Below, in pieces: positions 23,886-43,009 of a stretch of DNA of 64,000 bases. The DNA comes from an uncultured Planctomycetales bacterium (GTDB lineage: Bacteria > Omnitrophota > Gorgyraeia > Zapsychrales > JANLHA01). Where the stretch lies: contig CAYJXI010000007.1 of assembly GCA_964374105.1 (NCBI GenBank), forward strand, positions 13,096-77,095. Direction: 5' to 3'. Below the pieces are notes generated by a model. The model was not told the origin of the DNA. It ran no database searches and saw nothing but the letters and a program-made list of their open reading frames with translations. Position numbers and translations under genes: made by a program. Position 1 is the first letter of the stretch. Every line of letters starts with the position of its first letter.

Positions 23886-24053
23886 ATGATTTTTAGATGG
23901 GAAACTAAAGAAGAGCGGATATTGCGTTTCCTCAAGATCCCTCCAGAAAAGAAATTAGAATGGCTCCGTAAGATGCAGGAGTTTACAAAGAAAACTTCCT
24001 CTAGGCGCCTTCTTTTAATCCGAAAAAGATTACGGGAATTAAGAAGGCGCTAA
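23886..24053 (+). CDS. Possible small basic protein (55 aa) immediately downstream of the giant gene
   Basis: ATG..TAA ORF MIFRWETKEERILRFLKIPPEKKLEWLRKMQEFTKKTSSRRLLLIRKRLRELRRR. It is not in the supplied track (<60 aa) and has a weak RBS. Confidence 0.2.
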   Translation: MIFRWETKEERILRFLKIPPEKKLEWLRKMQEFTKKTSSRRLLLIRKRLRELRRR

Positions 24054-24156
24054 CAGATATCTTATGCCCTTGAGGTTAATGAGAGGGAGACCCGAGACGG
24101 GAAGAAAAAAAAGGAACTTGACAATTTTATCCCAATAGTGTAAACATGAGAGTGCA

Positions 24157-24540
24157 ATGAAAAGAATTTACGAAATATCAACCTTTTTGATGATCTCCAT
24201 TCTTATTTTGGGTTTGGTTTCTTGCTGTTGTGCCAGTGAGATTAACTGGGGGGCTTTAAATACTGAGACCTGCCATCAAGACCCCTTTCATCATCAACAA
24301 TCGCCCCAAAATTCGACGGATGACAATCATTGTGATTGCCCAGTTCTTATTGGTGTCAACCCATCGTTTGGTATTGACTTTAAGTCTCAGATGGCTTTTA
24401 GCCAACAACTCCATTTTGAGAATTTAAGCCATTTGGGTTCTTCAATTCAAATTGTTCTCACCGTGAATTACAATCAAGGACCTCCCAAAGGTTCTTTAAC
24501 CCTCCCGCTGTATCTTAAGAATTCTGTCCTTCGGCTTTAA
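24157..24540 (+). CDS. Small secreted His/Cys-rich hypothetical protein (possible metal-binding)
   Basis: Signal peptide/lipobox-like LVSCCC, then HQDPFHHQQSPQNSTDDNHCDCP. Sits directly upstream of the cusCBA-like operon. Confidence 0.35.
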   Translation: MKRIYEISTFLMISILILGLVSCCCASEINWGALNTETCHQDPFHHQQSPQNSTDDNHCDCPVLIGVNPSFGIDFKSQMAFSQQLHFENLSHLGSSIQIVLTVNYNQGPPKGSLTLPLYLKNSVLRL

Positions 24541-24656
24541 TCCGCCTTAAAGATAATCATTCTTATTTTTCTTCATTATTTCATACAAACTTTGTCTCAA
24601 AGTTGTTACAATTGACTTGTTGTAAATTCTTTTTAAGGAGAAGACAAGGAGAGAAA

Positions 24657-25922: not shown

Positions 25923-25938
25923 GAAGGGAGTAAGCATC

Positions 25939-27357
25939 ATGTCACGAAATAAATTTGTGGTCCTACTCATAATCATTCTTATGATCACGGGAGTGATTCT
26001 CACCATCAAAGGAGGGAATCTTCCCCGCTCTCAAAATAAAAAGGAAAAGGCGGTTTACTATTGTCCTATGCACCCAACTTACATCAGTGATAAGCCCGGG
26101 GATTGCCCTATCTGTTATATGAAGTTAGTCAAGAAAGAAGATTCCAATCCCGTGCCAGCAAAAGAACAAATGGTGCAAAGGATGAAAGACATTTGCATCA
26201 TGCACAATTGTCCTAAAAAACATGAGGGTAAAATTTGTCCGATGTTGATGGTGACCGAAGAAGGTGAAAAGGTTACCTGTCCTATTTGCGGGATGCATGT
26301 GGTGGGAGAAACGGCCGCACTTAAAGAGAAAAGAATTTTGTATTGGACGGACCCCATGATCTCGGGATATAAATCAGAAAAACCGGGGAAATCACCCATG
26401 GGAATGGATTTGATTCCTGTTTATGAAGAAGAGGGTGTAACTCAATCCCAAGGATCAACTCCTGAAGGTTATGCCTCAGTTGTTCTTTCTACTCAAAAGC
26501 AGCAATTGATCGGTATCAAAACGGCAAAGATCGAGAAAAAAAGGCTCAACAAAACAATTCGAACAGTTGGTACCATTGCCCATGACCCAGAACTTTATCA
26601 AGCCCAATCGGAATATATTCAAGCGATTAAGGCTTACCAACAGGCGCAAGCAAGTTCTATCCCAGAAATTGTTGACCAATCCAAACGCCTGCTGGAATCC
26701 ACTCGAATTCGTTTGAAACATCTAGGCCTCAGTGATGATCTGATTGAAGAAATCGCCACATGGAAAGAGCCGGAGCACAGCCTGCTTTTTGCCCATCCGG
26801 GAGATCCAGTATGGATGTATGCCCAAATCTACGAATTTGAACTGCCCCTGATTAAAGTTGGGCAGGAAGTTGATGCGGGAATCCCTTCTCTTCCCGGTGA
26901 AGTTTTTAAAGGGAAAATACGTGCGATTGATCGAATGGTTGAACCAACGACAAGAACGACCCGAATTCGGGTCTTAATAGAAGATCTTAAAGGGCACCTT
27001 AAACCGGATATGTATGTCAATGTCACGCTCAACATTGATCTGGGGGAAACTCTCACCGTTCCGGTTGAGGCGGTTTTTAATACCGGCACACGACAGATTG
27101 TTTTTCTTGATGAAGGTCAGGGGATCTTTACTCCCCGCGATGTTGTCTTAGGAACAAAGACAGAAAATGATTATGAGGTTAAAGAGGGTCTTAAAGAACA
27201 GGAAAGTGTCGTTGTCAGCGGCAACTTCTTGATTGATTCCGAAAGCCGTCTTAAATCGGCCATTGAGGGAATGATTTCTGAAAAAGGAAGTCCTAAAGGC
27301 AGCCCAATGGCTGAAGAGCCATCCTCAACGACAGGAGGCAATCGCCATGGACAATAG
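25939..27357 (+). CDS. Efflux RND periplasmic adaptor (CusB-like) with N-terminal tandem metal-binding motifs
   Basis: N-terminus carries YYCPMHPTYISDKPGDCPICYMKLV (heavy-metal-binding domain), two further Cys-rich copies, and a degenerate copy YWTDPMISGYKSEKPGKSPMGMDLIPV. This is followed by the membrane-fusion-protein body (HlyD-like beta-barrel/lipoyl regions). Confidence 0.8.
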   Translation: MSRNKFVVLLIIILMITGVILTIKGGNLPRSQNKKEKAVYYCPMHPTYISDKPGDCPICYMKLVKKEDSNPVPAKEQMVQRMKDICIMHNCPKKHEGKICPMLMVTEEGEKVTCPICGMHVVGETAALKEKRILYWTDPMISGYKSEKPGKSPMGMDLIPVYEEEGVTQSQGSTPEGYASVVLSTQKQQLIGIKTAKIEKKRLNKTIRTVGTIAHDPELYQAQSEYIQAIKAYQQAQASSIPEIVDQSKRLLESTRIRLKHLGLSDDLIEEIATWKEPEHSLLFAHPGDPVWMYAQIYEFELPLIKVGQEVDAGIPSLPGEVFKGKIRAIDRMVEPTTRTTRIRVLIEDLKGHLKPDMYVNVTLNIDLGETLTVPVEAVFNTGTRQIVFLDEGQGIFTPRDVVLGTKTENDYEVKEGLKEQESVVVSGNFLIDSESRLKSAIEGMISEKGSPKGSPMAEEPSSTTGGNRHGQ

Positions 27358-30300
27358 TCTTAAAAAATCCAATCCATCTCCCATTGAAGAAACAGGGGGG
27401 GAGCGGGAAAATAATGATGGCATTATTGAAAAGGTGATTGACTTCTCGGCCCGCAACAAGTTTATCATTTTCATTCTCATCATTGCCGCTATGATGGCCG
27501 GGTATGTCTCTTTAATAAATATCCCTTTGGATGCGATTCCTGATCTTTCTGACACTCAGGTCATTATTTACTCTCGGTGGGATCGTAGTCCCGATATCAT
27601 TGAGGACCAAGTGACTTACCCGATTGTGACAGCGATGCTGGGGGCGCCTCAAGTCAAGGCGATCCGCGGATTTTCGGATTTCGGATTTTCTTATGTTTAT
27701 GTCATCTTTAAGGATGGAACTGATGTTTACTGGGCGCGCAGTCGCACCTTGGAATACTTAAGTAAGATCATCCCGCGTTTGCCCGAAGGGGTTAGAACCG
27801 AATTGGGACCGGATGCCTCCGGGGTGGGGTGGGTCTATCAGTATGCCTTGGTGGATAAATCTGGGCAGCATAGCCTGCAAGAGTTAAGAAGCTTTCAAGA
27901 TTGGTACCTGCGTTATCATCTGCAGAGTGTTCCGGGAGTCGCGGAGGTTGCTTCTCTAGGAGGGTTTGTCAAACAGTATCAAATCACAATTGATCCTAAT
28001 AAACTCCTTGCGTACAACATATCTCTCCCTAGGGTTATTGAGGCCGTCCGCAAAGGGAATCAGGAGGTGGGAGGCAGACTCCTGGAATTTTCCGGGGCCG
28101 AGTATATGGTTCGGGGGCGTGGTTATGCAAAGTCCATCAAGGATTTGGAAGACATTGTGGTAGAGACCAAGGAGAAGGGAACGCCTATTTTGGTTAAAAA
28201 TTTGGGCAATGTGGCCTTGGGGCCGGAAATCCGTCGGGGATTGGCGGATCTGGATGGAGAAGGAGATGTGGTGACCGGAACTGTGGTGATGCGTTATGGA
28301 GAAAATGCCCTCAATGTCATCAACAGGGTCAAAACGAAACTCAAAGAGATTGAACCCTCTCTTCCTAAGGGCGTGGAAGTGGTCAGCCTTTATGATCGTT
28401 CGGAACTCATCAAACGTTCCATTGATACATTAAAGGAAAAACTCCTTGAGGAAATGATTACCGTGAGTTTGGTCATTCTTCTTTTCCTCTGGCATTTAAG
28501 GAGTGCCCTGATTCCGATTTTTACCTTACCGATTGCGGTTCTGATTTCTTTTATACCAATGTATTCGATGAAATTGACCTCCAATATCATGTCTTTGGGG
28601 GGTATCGCTATTGCCATTGGAGCGATGGTGGATGCCTCGATTGTCCTCATTGAAAATGCCCACAAACGCATTGAACGTTGGAAAGAGGAAGGCCGAAGAG
28701 AACCTTATAATGAAGTTTTGATTTCAGCGGCCAAGGAAGTAGGCCGTCCGATCTTTTTTTCTCTGCTAGTGATTGCGGTGTCATTTATTCCGATCTTCAG
28801 TCTGGAGGCCCAGGAGGGGCGGCTTTTTAAACCCCTCGCCTTCACCAAGAATTATGCGATGGCCTTTGCCGCTCTTTTGTCGGTCACGTTAGCACCCGCC
28901 TTGATGCTTTTATTAATTCGGGAGACAAAGTTTACCTTTAAACCCCGCTGGCTCAGTTCCCTTCTAACCTTCTTTGCCGGTGGAGAAATTCATGCCGAGG
29001 AAAAACATCCCGTCAGCCGTATCTTATTTCATCTTTATGAACCGATTGTCAAATGGGTGGTGGATTACCGTCAAGGTGTGATTGGCTTGGCTGTCATCTT
29101 GGTTCTTCTGACCGTGCCGGTTTACTTCTGGATTGGCCAAGAATTCATGCCGCAGCTGAATGAAGGATCTCTCCTCTATATGCCCACCACTTTACCCGGG
29201 ATTTCTGTTACTGAGGCCCAGCGTTTACTGCAGACTCAGGATAAAATCCTTAAAGGATTTGAAGAAGTCGAAAGAGTCTTCGGAAAGGCGGGACGAATAG
29301 AAAGCTCAACAGATCCTGCCCCCTTTTCAATGATGGAAACCGTGGTGACCTTAAAACCGCAGAACCAATGGTCACGCAAAATCTCTTATGAAGAACTGAT
29401 CTCCCAAATGGATGAGGTTTTAAGGATCCCCGGTTCCACCAATGCCTGGACCATGCCGATCAAGAATCGGATTGATATGCTCACAACGGGAGTAAGGACT
29501 CCTATTGGAATTAAGATATTCGGAGATGATCTTAAAAAAATAGAAGGGATCGGGATTGAGCTTGAGGTGATTTTAAAAGGAATTCCTGGGACACGGAGTA
29601 TTTATGCCGAACGGGTTGCCGGCGGATATTTTCTTGATTTCGATTTGAAACGCGGGGAATTAGCCCGTTACGGGCTAACCGTGGAAGACGCCCAGATGAT
29701 TATTATGACTGCTATCGGAGGAGAAAATATCACCACAACAATCGAAGGCCGGGAACGGTATCCGGTGAATATCCGTTATCCTCGGGAATTACGTGATGAT
29801 GTCGAGAAACTCAAACGGGTTTTGGTCCCCACTCCTTTGGGACAACATATTCCCTTGGTTCAAATCGCTGACATCGTTTTACGTTCAGGGCCGGCGATGG
29901 TCCGCAATGAGAATGGGTTACTGGCTGGTTACGTTTATGTGGATATGACCGGACGCGACCTGGGGGGTTACGTCAAGGAAGCCAAACGGATTGTCCGCGG
30001 AAAATTAAAGCTTCCCACCGGTTATGCCATTGTCTGGAGTGGTCAGTATGAAAATATGGCAAGGGTCATGCAACGGTTGGTAGTGGTCCTTCCCATGACC
30101 TTATTTATCATTTTCTTTTTGCTATACGTCAATACTAAATCCTTAGTCAAAACTTTTATTGTTTTGTTGGCTGTTCCTTTTTCTCTGATTGGGGCTTTAT
30201 GGCTCTTGTGGTTGTTGGGTTACAATATGTCGGTTGCGGTTTGGGTGGGGTTGATTGCCTTAGCCGGAGTGGATGCCGAGACAGGGGTCATTATGCTTTT

Positions 30301-30613
30301 GTATCTTGATTTGGCCTATGAGGAAGCAAGACGCAAAGGCACGATGAAAACTTTTGAACAATTGAAAGAAGCGATCATTCACGGGGCCGTGAAACGAATC
30401 CGTCCCAAAATGATGACGGTGGGGACAACGTTTATGGGACTCTTGCCTATTATGTGGGCCGCCAGTTGGGAAACCGGCGCCGATGTGACGAAACGCATCG
30501 CCGCTCCCATGGTGGGGGGCATCTTCACGTCCTTTATTATGGAATTATTGGTTTATCCGGCGATTTATGCGGTCTGGAAATGGAATTTTGAAATGAAGAA
30601 AGGTAACCGCTAA
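27347..30613 (+). CDS. cusA: Heavy-metal efflux RND transporter, CusA/CzcA family
   Basis: 1088 aa with 12 TM segments and two large periplasmic loops. Conserved HME-RND blocks are present (e.g. GIAIAIGAMVDASIVLIEN, AVWVGLIALAGVDAETGVIM). It overlaps the adaptor gene by 11 nt. Confidence 0.9.
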   Translation: MDNSLKKSNPSPIEETGGERENNDGIIEKVIDFSARNKFIIFILIIAAMMAGYVSLINIPLDAIPDLSDTQVIIYSRWDRSPDIIEDQVTYPIVTAMLGAPQVKAIRGFSDFGFSYVYVIFKDGTDVYWARSRTLEYLSKIIPRLPEGVRTELGPDASGVGWVYQYALVDKSGQHSLQELRSFQDWYLRYHLQSVPGVAEVASLGGFVKQYQITIDPNKLLAYNISLPRVIEAVRKGNQEVGGRLLEFSGAEYMVRGRGYAKSIKDLEDIVVETKEKGTPILVKNLGNVALGPEIRRGLADLDGEGDVVTGTVVMRYGENALNVINRVKTKLKEIEPSLPKGVEVVSLYDRSELIKRSIDTLKEKLLEEMITVSLVILLFLWHLRSALIPIFTLPIAVLISFIPMYSMKLTSNIMSLGGIAIAIGAMVDASIVLIENAHKRIERWKEEGRREPYNEVLISAAKEVGRPIFFSLLVIAVSFIPIFSLEAQEGRLFKPLAFTKNYAMAFAALLSVTLAPALMLLLIRETKFTFKPRWLSSLLTFFAGGEIHAEEKHPVSRILFHLYEPIVKWVVDYRQGVIGLAVILVLLTVPVYFWIGQEFMPQLNEGSLLYMPTTLPGISVTEAQRLLQTQDKILKGFEEVERVFGKAGRIESSTDPAPFSMMETVVTLKPQNQWSRKISYEELISQMDEVLRIPGSTNAWTMPIKNRIDMLTTGVRTPIGIKIFGDDLKKIEGIGIELEVILKGIPGTRSIYAERVAGGYFLDFDLKRGELARYGLTVEDAQMIIMTAIGGENITTTIEGRERYPVNIRYPRELRDDVEKLKRVLVPTPLGQHIPLVQIADIVLRSGPAMVRNENGLLAGYVYVDMTGRDLGGYVKEAKRIVRGKLKLPTGYAIVWSGQYENMARVMQRLVVVLPMTLFIIFFLLYVNTKSLVKTFIVLLAVPFSLIGALWLLWLLGYNMSVAVWVGLIALAGVDAETGVIMLLYLDLAYEEARRKGTMKTFEQLKEAIIHGAVKRIRPKMMTVGTTFMGLLPIMWAASWETGADVTKRIAAPMVGGIFTSFIMELLVYPAIYAVWKWNFEMKKGNR

Positions 30614-30623
30614 CCAAAAGTAG

Positions 30624-30643
30624 GGGCACGGCATGCCGTGCCC
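30624..30643. repeat. Perfect 20-bp palindrome gggcacggcatgccgtgccc (family member)
   Basis: The same arms recur at 31076..31126 (interrupted by a 26-nt insert) and at 37974..37999. Confidence 0.5.
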
Positions 30644-30674
30644 TGCCAGGCTTATTTTAAAGGAGGGGAAAACG

Positions 30675-31061
30675 ATGATTTACTTAATGACCATTCTAGG
30701 ATTCATGAGTCTAATTTTGGGAACATGGCAGGGAGCGATCAACAAAGAACAAACAAACAAGAAGAACACAGAATCGCAAGTACAAGTGATCGCCAAGGAA
30801 AAAGATTCCCAAGCCAATACCCAAGGGAAACAAGAAGTTGGTAATAAGATTTGTCCGGTCAGTGGGGAAGAGGTCGGTACAATGGGTGAGGTTGTCAAAT
30901 ACGAACATAAGGGCAAGGTTTATAATTTCTGCTGCAAGATGTGTGTCAAGGATTTTAAGAAGGATCCACAGAAATTTATTAAGAAGGTGGAGGAGGAAAT
31001 GAAAAAAGGAGAGTCTGCCTCTCCCGAGAACAAAGATGCCCATCATGAGCATAAACATTAG
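30675..31061 (+). CDS. YHS/TRASH-domain small metal-binding protein
   Basis: KICPVSGEEV...YEHKGKVYNFCCKMCVKDFKKDPQKF (YHS-like) with a His-rich C-terminus HHEHKH. The start at 30675 follows aggagggg. Confidence 0.55.
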   Translation: MIYLMTILGFMSLILGTWQGAINKEQTNKKNTESQVQVIAKEKDSQANTQGKQEVGNKICPVSGEEVGTMGEVVKYEHKGKVYNFCCKMCVKDFKKDPQKFIKKVEEEMKKGESASPENKDAHHEHKH

Positions 31062-31073
31062 AAAAAAGACGGT

Positions 31074-31128
31074 AGGGGGCACGGCATGCTCGCCTCGCTT
31101 CGCATCGGCGCAGCGGGCCGTGCCCCTC
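31074..31128. repeat. Split copy of the GGGGCACGGC palindrome with nested GCTTCGC-containing insert
   Basis: gggggcacggcatgc + tcgcctcgcttcgcatcggcgcagcg + ggccgtgcccc. Confidence 0.45.
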
Positions 31129-31155
31129 CTAATATTTAAAATAAAGGACCACTAA

Positions 31156-31578
31156 ATGAATTTCCATTTCCCCATCCATCCTGTCTTCGTTCACTTTCCC
31201 ATTGCCCTATTTTTTGCCAGTCTGATTTTTGAGATGATGGGAATCATTTTTAAAAGAGAAGACTTGCATCAATGTGGATTTTGGGTTTTTCATTTGGCGG
31301 TCATCAGTACACCCTTAGCGGTTGTGAGTGGCCTCTGGGAGGCGAACAAACATCATCTTCACCATCCTGTTATAGATCTCCACAGAAATTTGGGTTTGTT
31401 GACGATGGGGGAAGCGATCTTCTTGACCCTCATCTTGTGGTATGTTAAAAAGCGCTTACCCTCTTTATTTAGAGGGGTGTATCTCATATCATTACTTCTG
31501 ATTGTTATGGCTGTGTTTTTAACCGCTTATCAGGGGGGACGTTTGGTTTATGAATATGCCATTGGAGTTGAACTATGA
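31156..31578 (+). CDS. DUF2231-family membrane protein
   Basis: HPVFVHFPIALF N-terminal motif and four TM helices. Confidence 0.5.
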   Translation: MNFHFPIHPVFVHFPIALFFASLIFEMMGIIFKREDLHQCGFWVFHLAVISTPLAVVSGLWEANKHHLHHPVIDLHRNLGLLTMGEAIFLTLILWYVKKRLPSLFRGVYLISLLLIVMAVFLTAYQGGRLVYEYAIGVEL

Positions 31579-32747
31579 AAAAAGATCCAATCTGCGGGAT
31601 GAATGTCGATGAGAAAAAGGCTTACCGCTTGATGACCCAAAATGCCGAAGCTATCTATTTTTGCAGCCAGCATTGCTTAGAAAAATTCGCAAAGCAAGAG
31701 AACATCAATTTGAAGGAAATCGCCATTTCCTGTTATCCAAAAGAAGCGGGTTGGTATTTGAACAAGACAGTTTGGGTGGCTGGGGTGTTGTTGGCATTGG
31801 GCGGGTTGTCTTATTATTTTCCTATTTTAATTCCTTTTAGAAACACGCTCCTTATGTATGTCCATACCATTTGGTGGGCTATTCTTTTGGGATTGATTTT
31901 GGGAGGCATCATCGATCATTTTGTCCCTCGGGAATATATCTCCCATGTCTTAGCCCGTCCTTCCAAACGAACGATTTTGCACGCCGTCACTCTGGGATTT
32001 TTTATGAGCGCCTGCAATCATGGGATCCTGGCTTTGTCCATGGAGCTTTATAAAAAAGGGGCCTCGACCTCCTCAGTCATTGCATTTCTTCTGGCAAGTC
32101 CGTGGGCCAATTTTTCCCTGTCCTTAATGCTTTTTGGATTATTCGGACTGCTTAAAACAATTTATATCATTTTGGGGGCGGTTGTCATCGCCATTGTCAC
32201 CGGATTGATTTATCAAATCCTGGAAAGAGAAAAATGGGTTGAGAAAAATGAAGGCAGTCTTGCTTTCAATGAGAATTATTCTATCCTTTCCGATTTTAAA
32301 ATTCGCTACCAAAATTATCATCTGACCCGACAACAAATCCTTGATGATTTAAAGGGAGTTTATAAAGGGATGATCTCCTTAGGGAATATGGTCCTCTGGT
32401 GGACCTTTCTGGGAATTGGCTTGGCCAGTTTTTTTGGAGCGTATGTTCCTGAGAAGTTTTTTCATCAATATATGGGTCCCACCGTTAGGGGAATGATGGT
32501 GACGCTGTTTGTGGCTACCGTTCTTGAGGTTTGTTCGGATGGCATGTCTCCCTTGGCTTTTGAATTGTATCGCCAAACCAAAGCCTTGGGAAATAGTTTT
32601 GTTTTCCTCATGTCCGGTGTTGTGACCGATTACACAGAGATTGGACTGATTTGGCAGAATATTGGTAAGAAGGCGGCCATTTGGTTACCGATCATTACTG
32701 TCCCTCAGGTGATTGTCTTAGGTGTTATTGCCAATTTAATTTTTTAA
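31575..32747 (+). CDS. YHS-domain fused to a DUF318/COG0701-type permease
   Basis: N-terminal DPICGMNVDEKKAYRL...YFCSQHC (YHS metal-binding motif) followed by about 340 aa of polytopic membrane protein resembling predicted permeases (two internal repeats). Confidence 0.55.
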   Translation: MKKDPICGMNVDEKKAYRLMTQNAEAIYFCSQHCLEKFAKQENINLKEIAISCYPKEAGWYLNKTVWVAGVLLALGGLSYYFPILIPFRNTLLMYVHTIWWAILLGLILGGIIDHFVPREYISHVLARPSKRTILHAVTLGFFMSACNHGILALSMELYKKGASTSSVIAFLLASPWANFSLSLMLFGLFGLLKTIYIILGAVVIAIVTGLIYQILEREKWVEKNEGSLAFNENYSILSDFKIRYQNYHLTRQQILDDLKGVYKGMISLGNMVLWWTFLGIGLASFFGAYVPEKFFHQYMGPTVRGMMVTLFVATVLEVCSDGMSPLAFELYRQTKALGNSFVFLMSGVVTDYTEIGLIWQNIGKKAAIWLPIITVPQVIVLGVIANLIF

Positions 32748-32757
32748 AATGAAATGA

Positions 32758-32797
32758 AGTAGGTGACAGTCACTGTAAAATGACAGTCACCATTGTT
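32758..32797. terminator. Bidirectional terminator-like hairpin between convergent genes (two copies of palindrome gtgacagtcac)
   Basis: ggtgacagtcactgtaaaatgacagtcacc lies between the convergent 31575..32747(+) and 32803..34644(-) genes. Confidence 0.4.
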
Positions 32798-32802
32798 CAG
32801 TT

Positions 32803-34644
32803 TTATCGGGAACAACCGCATTTTGGTTTGAGCTGTTCTCCTTGGGTTTGCAAGGCTTTATTCAAGACTCCTAAATGATTTACGCCTGGCGAATTTTCAC
32901 TTTGAGGATTCCATCCCTCCAACCTCGAATCTTTTTGAGGGTCTTTCCCGCCACCCGGCGTTGTGTCACTTTGAGGATCAGTGACAATAGCTGTAAAGTT
33001 GCAAAGACATTCGGGTGGTTGCCCGCCACAATCACTTTTACCGATTGAACAACCGAGAGTATTTTTACTTCCAAAAAATTTGCAGAAACCTGTTCCCGCT
33101 CCCGCACCAGGACTCCCTAAATTGAGAGGCGAAGCAATGGTCATAATATCGATAGAGACTGGTATCTGATCTGGCATCCGACGTCCACACCAAACGCGGC
33201 CAAGGGCATCATAATGACAGGGAAGGCTTTCGGCCGTATTGATTGCGACAATACCTCCCGCTGAATAACCAATCAAATGAAAGAATATTTTCCTAAGCCC
33301 CGTAAGTTTAAAGTCAGGGTTAGATATTATATTGGCAAAGTAATTATTAAAATAAGCAATAACGTGGTCGGCATTTTGCCGGGCCGTTTTAGTATGGTCA
33401 TAATTGACGGCGAATAACATCTTTCGACAACATTCATTCGCAGTAACAGTTTTAGCCTTACTAGCCAAAACGCCCAAAAAAACAATTTTTTCAGCGGCGA
33501 ACACTTTACCATCTTTTCCTTTATCACCTAAACCACGAAAATAAATTGTTATCGAAAGATCCCATCCTGTATAGCAAGGATTGCAGGTGGGAATGAAATA
33601 ATTATCAGCCATTTTTTTAACTCCCACTGGCATCTTTTGATAATCTTGGTTATCAACAGCGGCATTATTCGCCGCAAGTAAATTTGCGGCGGTCGTAGTA
33701 GATAGGGTAGACTTCATGATTGCTTCGTACAATGCCCTGATCATATGTTCAGGGACACCATTGTCACGCAATTTACTGGTCAATCGATATCCCTTCAATT
33801 TTAGATCCTTTAAAATAAGGATCAATTCTTCAAGATCGCGGATATTAAACGGATCCAATCCTTTGATTCTCATGAAGGCTTGATACAGATCTGGATTGTG
33901 CCCTAACAATGTTAGGATCTCCTCATCTGACATGGCTTTGATTAAAATCATCGTTTTATAAAATGGATTAATGTCCAAATCGGTGAGAAAGGTATCTAAG
34001 AGGCCCGGCTCATCTCCTAAGGAAAAGGATTGTTCTCCTGGAAAGAGTTGGTTGGGATCTTCCGGGAATTGTTCAACTTGACCACCGTATAAAGCCACCC
34101 AGTCTTCGTGATCAAGCTTCACAGTTTCAACCCAATCAACTAAATTTTGCGGAGCATCACAGAGCTTATAGGGATCGTTGATTGTGAAGTCCCACCCAGC
34201 CTCAGGATGGGGATAAGGAATCGCTCGGCCTTGAAAGAATAAGAAGTTATTTAGAAATATTTGATCTGAGACATCGAGAAAACCATCATCATTGACATCT
34301 AAGGCATCGAGACAAATGGGTCCCGGACCTTCTTAGAATAAATAATTGAGAATAGTAACTCCATCAGAGATATCTAAAATTCGATCATTATTACAATGTC
34401 CGCGTACAAAAGTAGGAGGGGGAATATCAGGGACAATATTAGGGATAATATCCTCACTGAGGGATATGGGATTAAATTGAAAGAAGGAAAAAATGGTAAT
34501 AAGGATTACCCTTACTGTTGGCGACTTTTTTATATTTTTAAATGTTATGCTCATTGATTGGTCCTCCAATAAAATGATGATAATTTTATTTGTTGATAAA
34601 AGTTTAACACTTTTATTGTAGGGGAAACAAGGAGGGCGAGGCAT
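32803..34644 (-). pseudogene. Secreted dockerin-like + alpha/beta-hydrolase (lipase GxSxG) protein interrupted by an in-frame TAA
   Basis: The upper ORF (34333..34644) ends ...CNNDRILDISDGVTILNYLF then TAA (34333..34335). The same frame continues EGPGPICLDALDVNDDGFLDVSDQIFLNNFLF... into the 439-aa ORF with IGYSAGG (nucleophile elbow) and a Cys-rich C-terminus. Confidence 0.5.
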
Positions 34645-34834
34645 TTAAAGGAAACGTTTTCTTTAGAATGCACTTAGCGAATCTTAAAACAGAGGTAAAG
34701 GAAGAATGAGAGATTTAAGAATTTGACTATGGTCTTTTCATTGCGTATGCTAAACTTTTTAAAAGAAATCTGAGAATTGAAGGTGAACTGTGAATTTTTT
34801 AAAGAGAGTCTATTTTAAAAAAGGAGAAAGTTAA

Positions 34835-35182
34835 ATGAAAAAGAGATCTCTCTTTGGTATCATTTTAGCTTTGGCACATCTTTACTTAGTCATTTATACG
34901 ATCAATTCAATCTTGTATAATAGAGAACCAGACTGGCCGATGTACTGGATGTTATTCATGGGAATAGATTTCCCATTTTCTTTATTCCTGCTTCCTTTGA
35001 GTTTTTTATTAGATTTCTTAAATTTGGGTGTGCTGGTTGAGGCTTTCCCATCTCCCCTCAATGACGTTACTGATTTTTGGTTACCTGCATTCTTCTTTGG
35101 AATATTGGGAACGATCTGGTTCTTTTTTATACCAACGATAGTGATGAAGATTGTGTCTTGGCGAACAAGTCGTGTGAAGTGA
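34835..35182 (+). CDS. Small polytopic membrane protein, hypothetical
   Basis: 115 aa with 3-4 predicted TM helices. RBS aaaggagaaag. Confidence 0.35.
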   Translation: MKKRSLFGIILALAHLYLVIYTINSILYNREPDWPMYWMLFMGIDFPFSLFLLPLSFLLDFLNLGVLVEAFPSPLNDVTDFWLPAFFFGILGTIWFFFIPTIVMKIVSWRTSRVK

Positions 35183-35211
35183 TCAGTGTTTCTAAATAAT
35201 CTGTTTGAAAT

Positions 35212-37383
35212 ATGAATGATGTGATCGAAATCTTTACCTCCGCCTCTCATCAAGATGTCCTGGCCCTTGTGACCCAGATTGCCGTCCTCCTTTTTACAGC
35301 TAGACTTTTTGGAGAGTGTGCACAGCGTTTAGGACAACCGGTTGTCTTAGGTGAAATCCTTGCCGGCATTTTCTGGGGACCGTCTTTTTTGGGAAAATTT
35401 TTCCCTTTCCTAGTTGGGATTATCATCCCTGGCAATCCGACCCAGGGGCATCTGATTGAAGCCATCAGTTTGCTAGGAGCCATATTTCTTCTGCTTTTGA
35501 CCGGGTTAGAGACGGATATCAATTTGATTCGTCGGCATGCCAAGACAGCGTTAGGTGTTTCTCTGGGAGGAATTTTTGTTACCTTTATCTCGGGTTTTGT
35601 TTTGGGGCAATATCTTCCGGATTTTCTTCTGGTGAATCAAGAAGGAAGATTGGTTTTTTCTCTATTTATGGCAACAGCCTTTTCTATTTCCTCGATTCCG
35701 GTCATCGCAAAGGTCTTAATGGATCTTAAATTGATGCGCCGCGACATTGGTCAGACAATTATTGCCGCAGGAATGAGCGATGACACCATAGGATGGATTA
35801 TTCTCTCGGTAGTGGCCGGATTAGCCTCAGGTAAGGTCGTGACTTTGGGAGGGGCATTTTCTAATGCCTTGACTGTCGTTTTCTTTTTGATTGTGAGTTG
35901 CACTTTAGGCAAATGGATTGTTAAGAAATCTTTAGATTTTGTCCAAGATCATACAACAGGCAAAGATCGTCTTTTGACATTAGTCGTAGTATTGAGTTTC
36001 TTCTGGGGGGCGTTTTGCAAGGCCCTTCATCTTGAACCAGTCTTTGGCGCCCTTGTGATGGGGATCTTATTTAATCAAATGCCTAGACTTCCCAATTATG
36101 TTCATCAGAAATTAGAAAGTATTGCTTTGGGAATCTTTGCCCCTATCTTTTTTTCGGTGACGGGTTTAAAGGTCAATATCCTAACTCTATTAAATCTCCC
36201 GTTGTTATGGTTGACACTGGTAACGATATCAGTGGCTGTTTCAAGCAAAATGATCGGAACCTTCTTGGGGGCTCGATGGTTAGGAGGCAAGGATTTCTGG
36301 TCATCCTTAAGTTATGGCTCTGGCTTAACCGCGCGGGGAGCTATGGGCATTATCATTGCCACCATCGGATTATCCTTAGGTGTGCTAACCCAAGAGATGT
36401 TTTCCATCCTTATTCTGATGGCTGTTGTAACATCTCTGGTGGCTCCATTTTTATTAAGGTGGACGATTAAGCATGTCAAACCAAACGAAGAAGAATCGAG
36501 GCGTCTTAAGGAAGAACAGCTTGCGCAAGGAAGTTCAATAGGCCGAATCCATCGCGTTCTTGTTCCAGTCAGACGATGGGAATCCAAGATTCATTTGAGT
36601 GTGATGCAGACAATCAAATCCCGCCTCTTGCAAAGGATTGCTAAGAAGGCAAAACTCTCCATTACCCTTCTTAATGTGGATAAATTAGGGCACAAAACCA
36701 AAAACATTGAGTTTCTCAATGAATTGGGTTCTCTTTTCACTCACCAAGAAGTGATCAAAAGAATCGTTGAAAGTACCGATGTGATTAATGTAGTTCTGGA
36801 TGAATCGCAGAAGAATTACGATCTTTTAGTCCTGGGGGCATCCGAAACCCAAAACGATTCTGAATATATTTTTTCTAAGGTCATTGATTCCATTCTCAGT
36901 TTATCCACCTGCATGACGATTGTAGTTCATGCCAAGGAGGTTAAAGAAGGCTGGGAGCCTAAACGGATTCTTGTCCCAACTAACGGTTCCTTTGCCGCCA
37001 AACGGGCAGCGGAGTTTTCCTTTCTGTTGATAGCTTCAGAACAGGAAAGGGTTTATGTCCTCAATGTGATTGAACGAGATCAAAATCAATGGCAACAAGA
37101 TCTCTCCTCGGATCTGTTTAAGAGACAGTTTAAGGTATCAGAAAGCATAGTAGAGGAGTTAAAGGTCTTAGGGACAGCCCATGGGGTGAAGACATTGGCC
37201 GATGTTAAAATCGGTCCTGCTCCAGAAAAAGTTATTTTGGATTATGCCAAAGAGGAAAATATTGATCTCATCATTTTAGGTACAGATGTCCGTCCTGCTT
37301 CAGAACGTCTGTTTCTTGGGCCACGGGTGGAAAGGATCATCAAGAATTCCCCTTGCCCCGTGATCATCTTGAATTCAGGTTAA
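35212..37383 (+). CDS. CPA2-family (Kef-type) cation:proton antiporter fused to C-terminal universal stress protein (UspA) domains
   Basis: N-terminal about 400 aa Na+/H+ exchanger-type membrane domain (GEILAGIFWGPSFLG...). The C-terminal soluble region carries two Usp-like alpha/beta domains (...LILGTDVR...SPCPVIIL). Confidence 0.75.
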   Translation: MNDVIEIFTSASHQDVLALVTQIAVLLFTARLFGECAQRLGQPVVLGEILAGIFWGPSFLGKFFPFLVGIIIPGNPTQGHLIEAISLLGAIFLLLLTGLETDINLIRRHAKTALGVSLGGIFVTFISGFVLGQYLPDFLLVNQEGRLVFSLFMATAFSISSIPVIAKVLMDLKLMRRDIGQTIIAAGMSDDTIGWIILSVVAGLASGKVVTLGGAFSNALTVVFFLIVSCTLGKWIVKKSLDFVQDHTTGKDRLLTLVVVLSFFWGAFCKALHLEPVFGALVMGILFNQMPRLPNYVHQKLESIALGIFAPIFFSVTGLKVNILTLLNLPLLWLTLVTISVAVSSKMIGTFLGARWLGGKDFWSSLSYGSGLTARGAMGIIIATIGLSLGVLTQEMFSILILMAVVTSLVAPFLLRWTIKHVKPNEEESRRLKEEQLAQGSSIGRIHRVLVPVRRWESKIHLSVMQTIKSRLLQRIAKKAKLSITLLNVDKLGHKTKNIEFLNELGSLFTHQEVIKRIVESTDVINVVLDESQKNYDLLVLGASETQNDSEYIFSKVIDSILSLSTCMTIVVHAKEVKEGWEPKRILVPTNGSFAAKRAAEFSFLLIASEQERVYVLNVIERDQNQWQQDLSSDLFKRQFKVSESIVEELKVLGTAHGVKTLADVKIGPAPEKVILDYAKEENIDLIILGTDVRPASERLFLGPRVERIIKNSPCPVIILNSG

Positions 37384-37745
37384 TCCCTATTTGCCTTGTA
37401 TATGATAGAGTGATGTAGTTTTTTTAGGGAAGGGAGGAACTATTAGCCTTGAAGGAAAGATTCATAACAACCTATTTTACCTGTTGAGATAAATAATCTT
37501 AAAGGGAGCCTAATGGGTTGCTTAGGGGAATGAAACTCAGCCCTAGTTTTCTTAGGATATTAATTGACAAATATATTGCAAAAAGGTATTCTTTTTACTG
37601 AACACAAGTTAATGACTTAGAAAATAGTAAATATAAGCTTCAATTGTTTCTGTCCGCAAAAATTTAGAACTCTAAAAGGTGGCGGGTCTTCCTTCTGGTG
37701 TTATTTGCTATTTTCGAAGTTGATAATGAGAGGAGGAAGTCAATA

Positions 37746-37946
37746 ATGGCAAAGGGTAAAGTGAAATGGTTTAATGCCAAGAAAGGGTATGGTTTTATAG
37801 CCTCTGAATCTGGAGAGGATGTCTTTGTCCACTACAGCGAGATCCAAGGCAGTGGCTATAAGTCTCTGGAGGAAGGCCAGGCGGTAGAGTTTGAAATTGA
37901 GCAAAACCCCAAAGGTTTAAAAGCCAAAAATGTCATAGTTCCCTAG
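37746..37946 (+). CDS. cspA: Cold-shock protein (CspA family)
   Basis: [50 protein letters not shown] (RNP1/RNP2 motifs). A long about 360-nt leader upstream is typical of csp genes. RBS gaggagg. Confidence 0.9.
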
Positions 37947-37967
37947 GATGACATTAAATTGTTTATA

Positions 37968-38010
37968 AACAAGCAGGGGCACGGCAGGCCGTGCCCCTGC
38001 TTGTTTTGTG
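37968..38010 (+). terminator. Rho-independent terminator (GGGGCACGGC palindrome family)
   Basis: caagcaggggcacggc-agg-ccgtgcccctgcttg followed by ttttgtg. Confidence 0.6.
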
Positions 38011-38087
38011 CGCGCGGCATGATATGAGAAGTCTCCTTTTTCCCGATAGGTATAGTATAATTATATTGAGGACGGTTACCCCAACCC

Positions 38088-38834
38088 GTGGAAAATAAAA
38101 TGGAATCTCGTGGAAAAATACTTGTTGTGGACGATGATAAGACAATCACCACCCTTCTTGAGGCCAGGTTATCCGACTACGGTTTTCAAGTGATGTCTGC
38201 CTTTGATGGAATCGAGGCTATGGAAAAATATATTCACTTTGAACCAGATCTTATTATTCTTGATATATTGATGCCTCGGATGGATGGGTATACATTTGTT
38301 TTGGAATTCAAAAAGATTGCTAACATTAAAACTACACCTATCATTATCTTGACCTCTCGGGAGAATATGCAGGATATCTTTGAGATGGAAGGAATTAACG
38401 ATTACATGGTCAAGCCTTTTAAAATGGAAGATTTGTTACGAAAGATCAACAAACGGTTGATATCTAAGGAGAAAAAGATTTTGGTCGTTGATGATGAAGT
38501 TGATTTAGCCAACCTGATTGAATATCGTCTCACCCAAAGTGGTTATGATGTTTTTAAGGCCTACGACGGCCTGCAAGGATTGACCGCTGCCCAGCGAATG
38601 AATCCTGATTTAATGGTTATAGATGTGATGATGCCGAAATTGGATGGGTTTCGTGTCTGTCGCATGCTCAAATTTGACGAAAAATTTAAGAATATTCAGA
38701 TTGTTCTATTATCTTCTCTTCGACGAGAGAACGATCGAATTTTGGGCAAAGAAGTGGGCGCGGATGCCTATCTTACGAAACCCTACAATGGCAAAGTTCT
38801 TCTGCAGACCATGAAGGAATTATTGTGGGATTGA
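38088..38834 (+). CDS. Response regulator with two tandem receiver domains (no output domain)
   Basis: KILVVDDDKTITTLL...LDILMPRMDG and KILVVDDEVDLANLI...IDVMMPKLDG. Confidence 0.8.
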   Translation: MENKMESRGKILVVDDDKTITTLLEARLSDYGFQVMSAFDGIEAMEKYIHFEPDLIILDILMPRMDGYTFVLEFKKIANIKTTPIIILTSRENMQDIFEMEGINDYMVKPFKMEDLLRKINKRLISKEKKILVVDDEVDLANLIEYRLTQSGYDVFKAYDGLQGLTAAQRMNPDLMVIDVMMPKLDGFRVCRMLKFDEKFKNIQIVLLSSLRRENDRILGKEVGADAYLTKPYNGKVLLQTMKELLWD

Positions 38835-38935
38835 TTTCTCACGGGTCCATTTTATTCCCTCATTATCCCCAACACCCGGTGTTTGGGTGGTCGAATTTTT
38901 ATAAATATCATAGCAAAAAGCCTTGAGAATTTCCC

Positions 38936-40864
38936 ATGACTAAGAGATTGACCTACAAGGAACTACTAAACTATTATCAACTCTTTCAAGATTTCATGGA
39001 TCATATCCCGGATGTGATTTATTTTAAAGATACCAAGGGCAGGCTTATTTTAGTCAATGCGGCTCACGCCAAAGGGTTAGGGTTAAAACCAAAAGAAGTG
39101 GTTGGCAAAACAGATTTTGATATCTTCCCTTCCCAACGTGCCGAAAGGATGAACAAAGACGATCAATATGTCTTGAAGACAGGAAAACCGATCATCGATA
39201 AGATTGAGCGGGGCACCCGTCCGGATGGTGTAGATAATTATGTTTCCACAACCAAAATTCCTCGATTTGATAAAAAAGGACGCGTGACGGGATTAGTGGG
39301 GGTCACCCGGGATGTGACCAAACGCATGCAATTGGAACGTCTGCGGGAAGAACGAAAGCAAATCGAGAAGAAGCTTCAGATGCTGGAAGATTTAAATAAA
39401 CTGAAGTCAGAGTTTCTTTCTGCAGTTTCCCACGAATTAAGAACCCCTTTGGCCATCATCAAACAGCTGTTATTACTTATTTATGATGAAACCGTTGGGG
39501 AAATCAATGATAAGCAACGAGAAGTCTTGGTCAAAGCAAAGGAGAATATCGAACGGCTCAAAAGAATCATTGACCAATTGCTAGATATTTCTGCCATTGA
39601 AGGGAAACGGCTTAAATTGAATTATTCTTTGGTGAATTTTAATGAGTTATTTAAAGACTCCCAGGATTTTTTTAAAGAACAGGCTAAAAAGAAGAATATC
39701 AGATTGAAATATGACCTTCCCAAAAAGGAAATTAATATTTTTATTGATGTGGAGAGGGTGATCCAGGTCATTTCGAATCTCATTGAAAACGCCCTAAAGT
39801 ATACTGAGGAAAATGGCCAGATTATCGTTGAAGTTGATATGTTAGAAACCAAAGTCAGGGTCGGCGTTCATGATACCGGCATCGGGATTCCTAAGGCCCA
39901 TTTGCCAAAAATATTTGAGAAGTTTGTTCAAGTCGCAGAAAAAGACACCCCCGGGGCCAAGGGATTGGGTTTGGGATTAGCCATTGCCAAGGAAATCGTG
40001 GAGAAACATAGCGGAGAAATCTGGGCAGAATCCCAAGCGGGGGTGGGGAGCAAATTTTATTTTACTTTACCTCGATTTTTTACTGCTGATATCCTGGAGA
40101 AATCGATCAAAGATAAAATCAGGAATTTGTTAAATCAGGGAGCACCTGTCTATTTGATTAATCTATTGATTGTAAATTTTCAAGAATTTACCAGAAGAAT
40201 TGGTATCGGATCTCAACAATTATCTAGGGATTTGAAATCGATCCTTGATTCCGGCTTTAAGAGGTTCCCTAAGCTCAAGCATAATCAGATATTCATCAGT
40301 GATATCAAACACGGGAAATATAGCATTATTTTTCCAGAATCTTCTGAAAAGCGAGTCGTCACTTTCTGTGAGTTGATTAGAAATAGAACCAAGAATTATT
40401 TTAACAAACATAAAATTGAAGATGTCTTCATTGCCTTAGGGATTTTATCTTACCCGGCAATGGCCAAAGGAGTTAAGGAAGAGTTTGACAGAAATTTAAA
40501 CATCAAGGAAATCTATATTGGTTCAGAGGTGAGGCGTTTTAAGAGAATCAATTATAAAACCGATATACAAATTTCCCTCCCCAACGAGAAAGGGTATGTT
40601 TCTTCCACCATCGATCTTTCTTTGGGTGGGGTCTGTTTTTTGAGCCAAGAACTTTTAAAAACAGATGCCAAAATTAAAATGAAATTATTTCTTCTTAAGA
40701 AAAATACCCTCATTACGGCTTTAACCCGGGTCGCTTGGATTAGGAAAATGGATCTTTTACCCGGAGAAAATTTCCATCGATATAAGATAGGGCTTGAATT
40801 CATCAGAATGGATAGGCAAGATCGCAAATCCCTAGTGCAAGAGTTGAAATTATATTATGAATAA
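38936..40864 (+). CDS. PAS-domain sensor histidine kinase with C-terminal PilZ (c-di-GMP-binding) domain
   Basis: PAS (VIYFKDTKGRLILVNAAHAK...), H-box SHELRTPLAII, HATPase (HDTGIGIP, GLGLGLAIAKEIV). The C-terminus has RRFKRINYKTD...IDLSLGGVCF (RxxxR...DxSxGG, PilZ). Confidence 0.7.
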   Translation: MTKRLTYKELLNYYQLFQDFMDHIPDVIYFKDTKGRLILVNAAHAKGLGLKPKEVVGKTDFDIFPSQRAERMNKDDQYVLKTGKPIIDKIERGTRPDGVDNYVSTTKIPRFDKKGRVTGLVGVTRDVTKRMQLERLREERKQIEKKLQMLEDLNKLKSEFLSAVSHELRTPLAIIKQLLLLIYDETVGEINDKQREVLVKAKENIERLKRIIDQLLDISAIEGKRLKLNYSLVNFNELFKDSQDFFKEQAKKKNIRLKYDLPKKEINIFIDVERVIQVISNLIENALKYTEENGQIIVEVDMLETKVRVGVHDTGIGIPKAHLPKIFEKFVQVAEKDTPGAKGLGLGLAIAKEIVEKHSGEIWAESQAGVGSKFYFTLPRFFTADILEKSIKDKIRNLLNQGAPVYLINLLIVNFQEFTRRIGIGSQQLSRDLKSILDSGFKRFPKLKHNQIFISDIKHGKYSIIFPESSEKRVVTFCELIRNRTKNYFNKHKIEDVFIALGILSYPAMAKGVKEEFDRNLNIKEIYIGSEVRRFKRINYKTDIQISLPNEKGYVSSTIDLSLGGVCFLSQELLKTDAKIKMKLFLLKKNTLITALTRVAWIRKMDLLPGENFHRYKIGLEFIRMDRQDRKSLVQELKLYYE

Positions 40865-41234
40865 GAAAAGAATTCTTTTAGTTGATGATGAGAAGGATTT
40901 AGTCTATGCTGTGAAATTGCAGCTAGAGAAGAATTATTTTGAGGTTTTAACCGCTTATGATGGCCAAGAAGCCTTGGAAAAGGCCCGGGATGAAAATCCG
41001 GATATTATCATTTTGGATTTGATGTTGCCTAAGATCCACGGATACAAAGTATGCCGCATGTTAAAATTCGATGAAAAATACAAAGATATCCCCATTATCA
41101 TTTTTACCGCCCGCGCGCAGGAAAGTGATAAAAAATTGTCGTTTGAGGTAGGGGCGGATGCCTATATCACCAAACCCTTTGAGCCACAGATGTTGTTGGA
41201 TAAAATCAAGGACCTGTTGGATATACGCCCCTGA
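40857..41234 (+). CDS. Single-domain response regulator (PilH/CheY-like)
   Basis: RILLVDDEKDLVYAVKL...LDLMLPKIHG...IPIIIFTA. Confidence 0.8.
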   Translation: MNKKRILLVDDEKDLVYAVKLQLEKNYFEVLTAYDGQEALEKARDENPDIIILDLMLPKIHGYKVCRMLKFDEKYKDIPIIIFTARAQESDKKLSFEVGADAYITKPFEPQMLLDKIKDLLDIRP

Positions 41235-41253
41235 ATAAAAGAATAAAAGGTGA

Positions 41254-41285
41254 CAGTCCCGCCAAGGCGGGACTGTCATCTCAAT
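41254..41285. repeat. GACAG-core hairpin ggtgacagtcccgcc-aa-ggcgggactgtcatc between the regulator and pilB
   Basis: Perfect 15-bp stem with no U-tract. It gives the spurious mirror ORF starts MTVPP... on both strands. Confidence 0.45.
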
Positions 41286-41297
41286 CTGGGAGGCAAA

Positions 41298-42968
41298 ATG
41301 GATAAAACCAGAGAAGTAGTTGATTTATTAATTAAGGAAGGATTAATAACAGATGAGAATTTACAGAAAGCCAGGGAGGAATCCAAACGCACTGGTCTGC
41401 CGGTGGATAAGGCATTGGAAAAATTAGGTTTTATCAGTGATAAAGAAATTTTAAGAGTCCGTGCCTCGACCTTAAGTCTTCCCTATATTGATTTAGCGGA
41501 TTATATGATCGATAAAAGCCTTATTCCTTTGATCCCGGAACAAGTGGCAAAGAAATACAAGGCCGTTCCCCTTTTTCGGATCAATAATAGTTTAACGGTG
41601 GGGATGGTTGATCCGCAGGATGTGGCGGCCTTGGATCATATCCGCCGGGTAAGTCATATGGACATGATTGAACCGGTTTTGATTTCAGAGAAAGGAGTCC
41701 AGCTTGTCCTAGATACCTGTTATACCGCCGAAGAAACTTTTGAAGACATTGTCCGGTCCATAGACAAAGAAAAGATTCAGGAGTCCGATCGCAAAGGTTT
41801 GGTGGAAGTTGCGGAAGATGCCCCGGTTATCAAATTGGTGAATAACATCATCAGCCAGGCCATTAAAGATCGAGCCTCGGATATTCATATGGAACCAGAA
41901 GAGGACAGTGTTAGAATCCGTATCCGAATTGATGGTTTATTAAATGAAATGGCCGTTTTCCCCAAGAAACTCCAAAATGCCCTTGTCTCCCGAGTGAAGG
42001 TCTTAGCGAAAATGGATATTGCCGAGAGCCGAAAACCCCAAGATGGGAGAATCCGACTGAAGATGGAGAATAAAGATTTGGATATGCGGATTTCCACATT
42101 CCCGACCGTTCATGGAGAGAATGTGGTGATGAGATTATTGGATAAATCTTCGGTGGTGATGGGGTTGAAGGAATTGGGCTTATTGGAAGAAGACCTTCAG
42201 ATGTTTAACAAATTAATCCGACGACCCCATGGGATTATCTTGGTGACCGGTCCCACGGGGAGTGGGAAAACAACGACCCTTTATACGGCCTTATCCACGA
42301 TCAGTTCCATGGAAAAAAATATTGTCACCATCGAAGACCCGGTGGAGTATGAACTGCCGTTGATTCGCCAGACCCAGGTCAACACAAAAGCGGGAATTAC
42401 CTTTGCCAATGGATTAAGAAGTCTTTTAAGACAGGATCCAGATGTCATGATGGTGGGGGAGATCCGTGATAAAGAAACCGCCGAAGTCGCTATTCAGGCT
42501 TCCTTAACCGGACATCTTGTTTTCGCTACTCTTCATACCAACGATGCCCCATCCTCCTTGACCAGACTGATTGATATGGAGATTGAATCCTTTCTCATTT
42601 CCAGCTCTATTGTGGGAATCATCGCGCAGCGGTTGGTCAGATTAATCTGCGATAAATGCAAAGAAAGATATGAGCCCACAGCAGAGGTGATAAAGGAATT
42701 GGGGATTACGGAAAAAATGGAATTTTCTCACGGAAAAGGATGTCATCATTGTAAAAAGACAGGATTTATAGGACGAAGTGGAATTTTTGAGATCCTTACC
42801 CTTAATGATGAGATAAGAAGGATGATTGACCAAAGAAGTTCCGCGGACGATATCAAAAAGAAAGCAATCACGTTAGGCATGAAAACATTAAGAAAGGATG
42901 GCCTTATCAAAGTCCAAAAAGGAATAACCGTTCCTGAGGAAGTATTGAGGGTAACGGAAATTGAATGA
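41298..42968 (+). CDS. pilB: Type IV pilus assembly / type II secretion ATPase (PilB/GspE family)
   Basis: N-terminal T2SSE_N domain, Walker A GPTGSGKTTTLY, Asp/His boxes, and a tetracysteine zinc motif CDKC...CHHC. Confidence 0.9.
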   Translation: MDKTREVVDLLIKEGLITDENLQKAREESKRTGLPVDKALEKLGFISDKEILRVRASTLSLPYIDLADYMIDKSLIPLIPEQVAKKYKAVPLFRINNSLTVGMVDPQDVAALDHIRRVSHMDMIEPVLISEKGVQLVLDTCYTAEETFEDIVRSIDKEKIQESDRKGLVEVAEDAPVIKLVNNIISQAIKDRASDIHMEPEEDSVRIRIRIDGLLNEMAVFPKKLQNALVSRVKVLAKMDIAESRKPQDGRIRLKMENKDLDMRISTFPTVHGENVVMRLLDKSSVVMGLKELGLLEEDLQMFNKLIRRPHGIILVTGPTGSGKTTTLYTALSTISSMEKNIVTIEDPVEYELPLIRQTQVNTKAGITFANGLRSLLRQDPDVMMVGEIRDKETAEVAIQASLTGHLVFATLHTNDAPSSLTRLIDMEIESFLISSSIVGIIAQRLVRLICDKCKERYEPTAEVIKELGITEKMEFSHGKGCHHCKKTGFIGRSGIFEILTLNDEIRRMIDQRSSADDIKKKAITLGMKTLRKDGLIKVQKGITVPEEVLRVTEIE

Positions 42969-43009
42969 TCTGAGCAGGCTTAAGTTTTAAACCTTTTTTA
43001 AGGTCAAGC

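Follow-up and report, generated by a model that had tools for sequence, protein, structure and literature searches.

A premature in-frame stop inside a dockerin-type module points to a recent nonsense pseudogene of a secreted α/β-hydrolase in an Omnitrophota bacterium

Public gene calls place two hypothetical proteins of 73 and 439 amino acids side by side, in the same frame, on the minus strand of an Omnitrophota contig. Do they represent two genes or one and, if one, what is the stop codon between them? The initial annotation, made on the same 64,000-nucleotide stretch of DNA (the window, by which we mean the whole stretch analysed), had seen a single gene interrupted by a TAA and offered a pseudogene, a sequencing error or stop-codon read-through as explanations. 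Our analysis favours the first of these, as the stop splits a domain that is uninterrupted in homologues, and turns against the other two: the locus is most probably a recent nonsense pseudogene of a secreted, dockerin-tagged α/β-hydrolase. For annotation this would mean that the two ‘hypothetical proteins’ are fragments of one inactivated gene.

The open reading frame (ORF) list of the window contains a 103-residue ORF (34644..34333), which ends at the TAA, and in the same frame of the minus strand a 439-residue ORF that opens with GTG (34122..32803). Reading this frame confirmed that the TAA lies between two dockerin repeats of one gene, with helix 1 of the first repeat before it and the loop of the second after it; the peptides quoted earlier, an IGYSAGG motif and a Cys-rich C terminus were all found in the translation (Table 1). 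Counted from ATG 34554, 73 codons precede the stop, and the 509 codons that follow it stay open down to 32803. The first candidate start codon past the stop is GTG 34122, which lies 70 codons into this stretch. The true start is likely ATG 34554 (MSITFKNIKK...) and not ATG 34644, the first ATG of the ORF, because a GGAGG precedes the former and the public gene calls also use it. There is no Shine–Dalgarno (SD) motif before either ATG 34644 or GTG 34122; by the test applied to ATG 34554, one is present before 18 of the 40 window genes.

The 73-residue piece begins with a predicted leader, comprising a basic n-region (K6, K9, K10 and R15), the hydrophobic core VILITIFSFF and then ...SLS|ED. Its signal-peptide-like character, which the initial annotation had pointed out, is borne out by this reading of the sequence, and hydrophobic leaders also begin the full-length homologues. 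For the linker between the dockerin-type module and the hydrolase domain we found no family match at residues 136–305; it is modelled as helices, with pLDDT values of about 67–87 in the core and low values elsewhere.

Table 1 Parts of the disrupted gene (window coordinates) and loci of members of its hydrolase family (coordinates within the locus named)
Feature	Position	Strand	Details
Whole disrupted gene	32803..34554	-	583 codons including the internal TAA; terminal TAA 32805..32803
Premature in-frame TAA, codon 74	34335..34333	-	Next base G
Sequence context around the codon-74 TAA			TTATTCTAAGAAGGT
Shine–Dalgarno GGAGG	34567..34563	-	8 nt upstream of ATG 34554
Signal-peptide-like N terminus, residues 1–33	34456..34554	-	Predicted by reading the sequence
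Dockerin-type module, residues 47–135	34150..34416	-	Two F-hand Ca-binding repeats and an extension; TAA inside
Helical linker/middle domain, residues 136–305	33640..34149	-	Conserved in full-length homologues (alignment)
Cys-rich α/β-hydrolase domain, residues 306–583	32806..33639	-	
Ser431 codon TCA, in G-Y-S-A-G	33262..33264	-	Predicted nucleophile; conserved 30/30
Asp530 codon GAC	32965..32967	-	Probable catalytic acid; conserved 28/30
His560 codon CAT	32875..32877	-	Predicted catalytic histidine; conserved 30/30
Two strain polymorphisms, K261I and N265Y, in the linker	33762..33773	-	Relative to MAG GCA_947085705.1
Hydrolase family locus, Woesearchaeota	L002 6001..6777		
Hydrolase family locus, Polyangiales	L003 5992..6915		
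Hydrolase family locus, Verrucomicrobiales	L004 2565..3371		

Whether the two pieces belong to one protein is decided by the dockerin-type module. We compared them with a leave-one-out profile of 10 homologous dockerin modules from which the module of the disrupted gene itself was excluded. The piece before the stop matches profile positions 1–27 (25 bits, E value 7 × 10−10 for a single comparison, Z = 1) and the piece after it positions 30–83 (60 bits), while the fused reading gives a single ungapped match of 99 bits in which the stop occupies profile position 28. As one contiguous profile match runs across the stop, the TAA replaces exactly one codon inside one domain, and the continuity of the reading over it is far beyond chance. 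The Pfam family Dockerin_1 (PF00404) also matches the fused translation, at residues 54–105 and thus across codon 74. It does so without reaching the gathering threshold of 22.9 bits, either in the fused protein (16.6 bits, E value 0.009) or in the excised module (20.5 bits); all 11 aligned modules match PF00404, and several pass the gathering threshold (best E value 4.7 × 10−12). A profile of all 11 modules, with the gene's own module included, matches the solved dockerins 8x39, 4fl4, 3ul4, 2y3n and 1daq at E values from 6 × 10−11 to 2 × 10−7 over profile positions 4–66, which take in both repeats.

The initial annotation had called both repeats canonical Ca-binding repeats, which needs correcting for the first. 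A canonical loop has D or N at positions 1, 3, 5, 9 and 12. That of the second repeat, DVNDDGFLDVSD, is canonical, whereas that of the first, HCNNDRILDISD, carries a His at loop position 1 and an Arg at position 6, and calcium binding by repeat 1 is, as judged from these residues, uncertain. Gln or Arg at position 6 of this loop is common to the full-length homologues, and the substitution is therefore a family trait and not a sign of decay.

Modules of this type, which we call PVC-type, have in common a conserved extension at the C terminus, P-[YF]-P..G.D.T.D...C (here at window 34150..34230 on the minus strand), and a conserved pair of Cys, one placed between the repeats and the other at the module end; the pattern suggests a disulfide clasp. 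The module has hundreds of relatives in Planctomycetota-type proteins. That dockerin-bearing enzymes are rare outside cellulosome producers, as had been assumed for this gene, is an out-of-date view: non-cellulosomal dockerins are reported in giant ORFs of Omnitrophota (PMC10066038; bioRxiv 10.1101/2023.11.21.568195; bioRxiv 10.64898/2026.06.07.730766) and occur widely across the PVC group (PMC10066038; bioRxiv 10.1101/2023.11.21.568195), and the Omnitrophota papers cite Peer et al. (2009) for their wide occurrence outside cellulosome producers. With dockerins documented in Omnitrophota, a dockerin-bearing enzyme in this phylum is unsurprising. The search for cohesin partners that the initial annotation had proposed returned no match to PF00963 in the 40 window proteins scanned with Pfam, including a 3,341-residue ORF scanned at lax thresholds.

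If the TAA interrupts one domain, homologues should tell what stood in its place. Orthologues were sought with the fused protein in a word-index search, with phmmer run exhaustively against 1.84 billion representatives, by a contig scan with the family alignment, by a scan of JGI metagenomes with the protein and with a DNA pattern that had NNN at the stop. Apart from the same species, these searches gave nothing closer than about 40% identity, and the comparison is therefore limited to the family level. The phmmer search returned 821 hits at E ≤ 1 × 10−3, most of which cover only the dockerin segment and about 30 the C-terminal domain. Four homologues have all the parts, from leader and dockerin to helical linker and Cys-rich domain, without interruption (P0017, 564 residues; P0012, 537; P0033, 572; P0057, 558), at 27–32% identity. 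All four have a sense codon at the stop column, as the check suggested earlier had looked for, and the residues are V, I, L and D, respectively. The P0033 gene reads TTA there, which a single transversion would turn into TAA, and the P0012 gene reads ATT. The genomic contexts of homologues at loci L003, L009 and L010 offered no functional clue.

A stop seen in a metagenome-derived genome, which is known here from assemblies, could be a sequencing or assembly error, with a sense codon at 34333..34335 in the true genome. The 439-residue product, however, leads to contig CAMTXN010000022.1 of an independently deposited metagenome-assembled genome (MAG), GCA_947085705.1, which is collinear with window 22803..44122 and, with 3 mismatches in 21,320 bases (99.986% identity), has the same TAA. 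Exact-sequence look-ups further found the gene in the Logan assemblies of ERR4904390, ERR4904391, ERR4904392 and ERR3478686, four separate runs that belong to two accession series; each assembly is 100% identical to the window and has the TAA. Six assemblies thus agree on the stop, an agreement of assemblies rather than of reads, at which level a minority intact allele is possible. For some of the six, 100% identity to the window genome makes shared samples probable, whereas at least the MAG, with its single-nucleotide polymorphisms (SNPs), is separate data, and so are the two run series. The same TAA in these makes an assembly error very unlikely. The TAA is also a substitution in non-repetitive sequence and not a homopolymer indel, and we regard the error that the initial annotation had allowed for as very improbable. 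An intact 583-residue allele was absent from a collection of 15 billion proteins, in which the gene appears only as 439-residue and 73- or 103-residue fragments. The nonsense allele is best read as fixed, or nearly so, in the sampled population.

Two of the three SNPs that distinguish the MAG from the window fall in the disrupted gene (Table 1), and both are non-synonymous. This fits relaxed constraint weakly, since the two sites are only 11 nt apart. The third, at window position 27268, lies in a CusB-like gene (25939..27357), where a GGA in the window is a TGA in the MAG (L001 16853..16855) that cuts this membrane-fusion protein from 472 to 443 residues. All three differences over 21.3 kb therefore alter a protein, and two genes of the neighbourhood have nonsense alleles in one strain or the other. 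Two Logan contigs break within the disrupted gene: one (L006) starts at window position 34349, 14 nt upstream of the TAA, and the other (L008) ends at 33769, 4–7 nt from the two SNP sites, which hints at strain microdiversity in those samples.

A real stop may still be translated. Programmed read-through or suppression, for instance by a suppressor tRNA, would yield the full-length secreted enzyme, and the frame that stays open for 509 codons past the stop would then be explained, as would the assembly of the nonsense allele as the only one in several data sets. The codon itself speaks against it. UAA is the most efficiently recognised stop in bacteria and is read by both RF1 and RF2. TAA terminates 31 of the 49 window ORFs (TGA, 14; TAG, 4), and the tetranucleotide TAAG, the context found here, ends seven other window genes. 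The RNA downstream of the stop is no more stably folded than shuffled sequence (minimum free energy z = 0.09). We found no tRNA and no Rfam element within the window; the suppressor-tRNA check extends over the window, one part of the genome. Recoding should moreover leave other in-frame TAA codons, as the initial annotation had reasoned, but no other stop that splits a domain turned up in the window. The remaining scanned pairs of same-frame ORFs across one stop are distinct adjacent genes with starts of their own and unrelated domains, such as Cyclase and SelR at 350..1585 or DUF1318 and the next ORF at 4379..5812. With ordinary sense codons at the site in homologues, read-through is highly unlikely, and the disrupted gene tells nothing new about the genetic code.

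What, then, did the gene encode past its dockerin? Neither Pfam nor NCBIfam has a family that matches the C-terminal 278 residues at threshold, and all homologues are annotated as hypothetical. Around the nucleophile elbow, family members match Abhydrolase_2 weakly (six of nine, best E value 6 × 10−5), as well as the carboxylesterase 4f21. We modelled the hydrolase domain with AlphaFold2 (pLDDT 80.3, pTM 0.86) and searched the model with Foldseek, which gave 156 PDB matches at E ≤ 1 × 10−3, with probability 1.0 to esterases and thioesterases, E values from 2 × 10−6 and TM-scores of 0.4–0.5. Among the 50 matches listed, almost all are α/β-hydrolases, including a feruloyl esterase, PKS/NRPS thioesterases, a Pseudomonas fluorescens esterase and a monoacylglycerol lipase; one is an engineered protein whose fold is not stated. 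A full-length model of the 509-residue protein after the stop reached a pLDDT of 59 and was left out of the fold search.

These results support an α/β-hydrolase fold for the C-terminal domain. In the model, Ser431 sits at a strand-to-helix turn and Asp530, in the loop that follows the penultimate core strand, is the probable catalytic acid, with Asp469 as an alternative. The earlier description of an α/β-hydrolase with a GxSxG elbow and a Cys-rich tail thus holds, on the fold of the model and on the conservation of Ser431, Asp530 and His560 (Table 1), and about ten Cys are conserved in the family. The term ‘lipase’ was over-specific, as the fold matches esterases and thioesterases in general. 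With some 30 representatives of the domain among 1.84 billion, the family is rare and unnamed, and its definition as a Cys-rich α/β-hydrolase family is a modest gain in annotation. It spans bacteria and archaea (Omnitrophota, Polyangiales, Verrucomicrobiales and Woesearchaeota) and its members are either fused to an N-terminal PVC-type dockerin or leaderless and stand-alone. The family profile also has a weak match (E value 0.11) to the type VI secretion system phospholipase effector Tle1 (6sjl).

The stand-alone form raises another possibility, that of a split but partly functional gene from which a leaderless hydrolase is made at an internal start, either GTG 34122 (439 residues) or ATG 33612. 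Many family members have neither signal peptide nor dockerin, and many are about 270–320 residues long and start with MPA.. or MPS.. some 15 residues before the CxxC motif. ATG 33612, on the minus strand, is placed where these members begin, nine codons before the hydrolase CxxC, and has an SD-like GGGAG at the right spacing, which may be there by chance; the catalytic residues have been kept, as have most conserved positions. However, the same loose test finds SD-like motifs before 6 of the 28 internal in-frame starts, so that the motif at 33612 is not significant, and GTG 34122 has none. Translating ribosomes would stop 240 codons upstream of ATG 33612, and a scan for promoters and terminators found no promoter that stands out and nothing decisive. 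The closest relatives by architecture are, furthermore, all secreted and dockerin-bearing, and the window protein has a Cys at the otherwise conserved Tyr509. A leaderless product is thus unlikely, although, if the start at 33612 were true, one point mutation would have moved the enzyme from a surface tether into the cytoplasm. It is equally doubtful that continued function of the locus is what preserves the nonsense allele, be it through low-level read-through, which would supply the secreted enzyme in small amounts, or through the internal start at 33612.

A recent nonsense pseudogene remains our preferred reading, and it implies the following course of events. Intact, the gene would have encoded a Sec-exported protein of about 580 residues in which a signal peptide is followed by a dockerin-type Ca-binding module of the non-cellulosomal kind, then by a helical linker and finally by a Cys-rich hydrolase, whose predicted triad of Ser431, Asp530 and His560 would act on an ester-type bond. 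If other dockerin proteins are a guide, the module may have tethered the enzyme to a cell-surface partner or scaffold protein; if Omnitrophota do tether enzymes to surface scaffolds through dockerins, this hydrolase family is a candidate cargo. A point mutation would then have changed codon 74 to TAA, most simply from TTA (Leu). Translation from the sole SD-equipped start would now end after 73 residues, that is, after the leader and half a dockerin, and any product of the next in-frame start would be leaderless. With a stop after 73 residues and no SD before the next in-frame start, the locus is best read as a young pseudogene.

The age of the lesion can be judged from what has been kept. Of 27 strongly conserved positions, at which 85% or more of 30 homologues agree, 24 are retained, and the three changes are F430Y, V471M and Y509C. 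Only the last, at a Tyr that is conserved in 27 of the 30, is non-conservative. The GC content of the gene is like that of the rest of the window. Together with the 509 open codons and the intact Ser and His, these features make the lesion look recent, and the hydrolase–dockerin gene appears to have been lost recently in the window organism. We found no second disabling lesion in the downstream 509 codons, which would also be expected if that part were still expressed, and the leaderless stand-alone forms in other lineages mean that a leaderless product is not necessarily useless. Horizontal acquisition of the gene was also considered and was rejected on its GC content, which matches that of the window.

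The neighbourhood of the gene has features of its own. Convergent with it lies a Cus-like heavy-metal RND efflux cluster (24603..32747, plus strand) that encodes an OEP, a CusB-like protein with an HMBD and an RND pump, followed by a YHS/TRASH protein, a DUF2231 protein and a permease of the ArsP type that bears a YHS domain at its N terminus. The ORF of 3,341 residues (13776..23801, plus strand) matches no Pfam family at E ≤ 1 × 10−3 and gives only chance-level matches at E ≤ 10; giant ORFs are a known trait of Omnitrophota. A type II secretion or type IV pilus-like locus (41250..49771) lies near this ORF, and its PilB/GspE-like ATPase (41250..42968) has its best named relatives, at 64–73% identity, in Omnitrophica/Omnitrophota MAGs. 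Upstream of the pilus/type II secretion genes, at 38936..40864 on the plus strand, precomputed Pfam hits identify a 642-residue PAS histidine kinase with a PilZ domain, which is flanked by response regulators.

Set beside known systems, the module shares with type I dockerins (PF00404, for example in the cellulosomal enzymes of Clostridium thermocellum) the duplicated EF-hand-like Ca loop plus helix of about 22 residues, the F-hand. It stands at the N terminus, right behind the leader, whereas in most cellulosomal enzymes the dockerin is C-terminal, and, unlike a canonical type I dockerin, it has a degenerate first loop. The extension with its Cys pair is absent from clostridial dockerins. The module here is, in addition, cut by a stop codon, its own Pfam score is below the gathering threshold, and the window holds no cohesin. 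The hydrolase domain, for its part, has the GxSxG at a strand–helix turn in common with Abhydrolase_2 (PF02230) and with the structures 4f21, 7xrh, 3lcr and 3hea, and the canonical order of Ser, Asp and His in common with carboxylesterases and thioesterases. It differs from the reference esterases in that TM-scores reach only 0.4–0.5 at 10–18% identity and no Pfam or NCBIfam model matches at threshold, and the conserved Cys of its family (in CxxC, CC, CLC and, at the C terminus, CxC) are missing from the reference esterases and thioesterases.

As a lesion, the locus resembles ordinary bacterial nonsense pseudogenes, with a single premature stop inside a conserved domain, an otherwise intact gene, uninterrupted homologues and the same pattern of public annotation as two adjacent same-frame hypothetical ORFs. 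It differs from them in nothing material; what is notable is that several metagenomic data sets show the nonsense allele alone.
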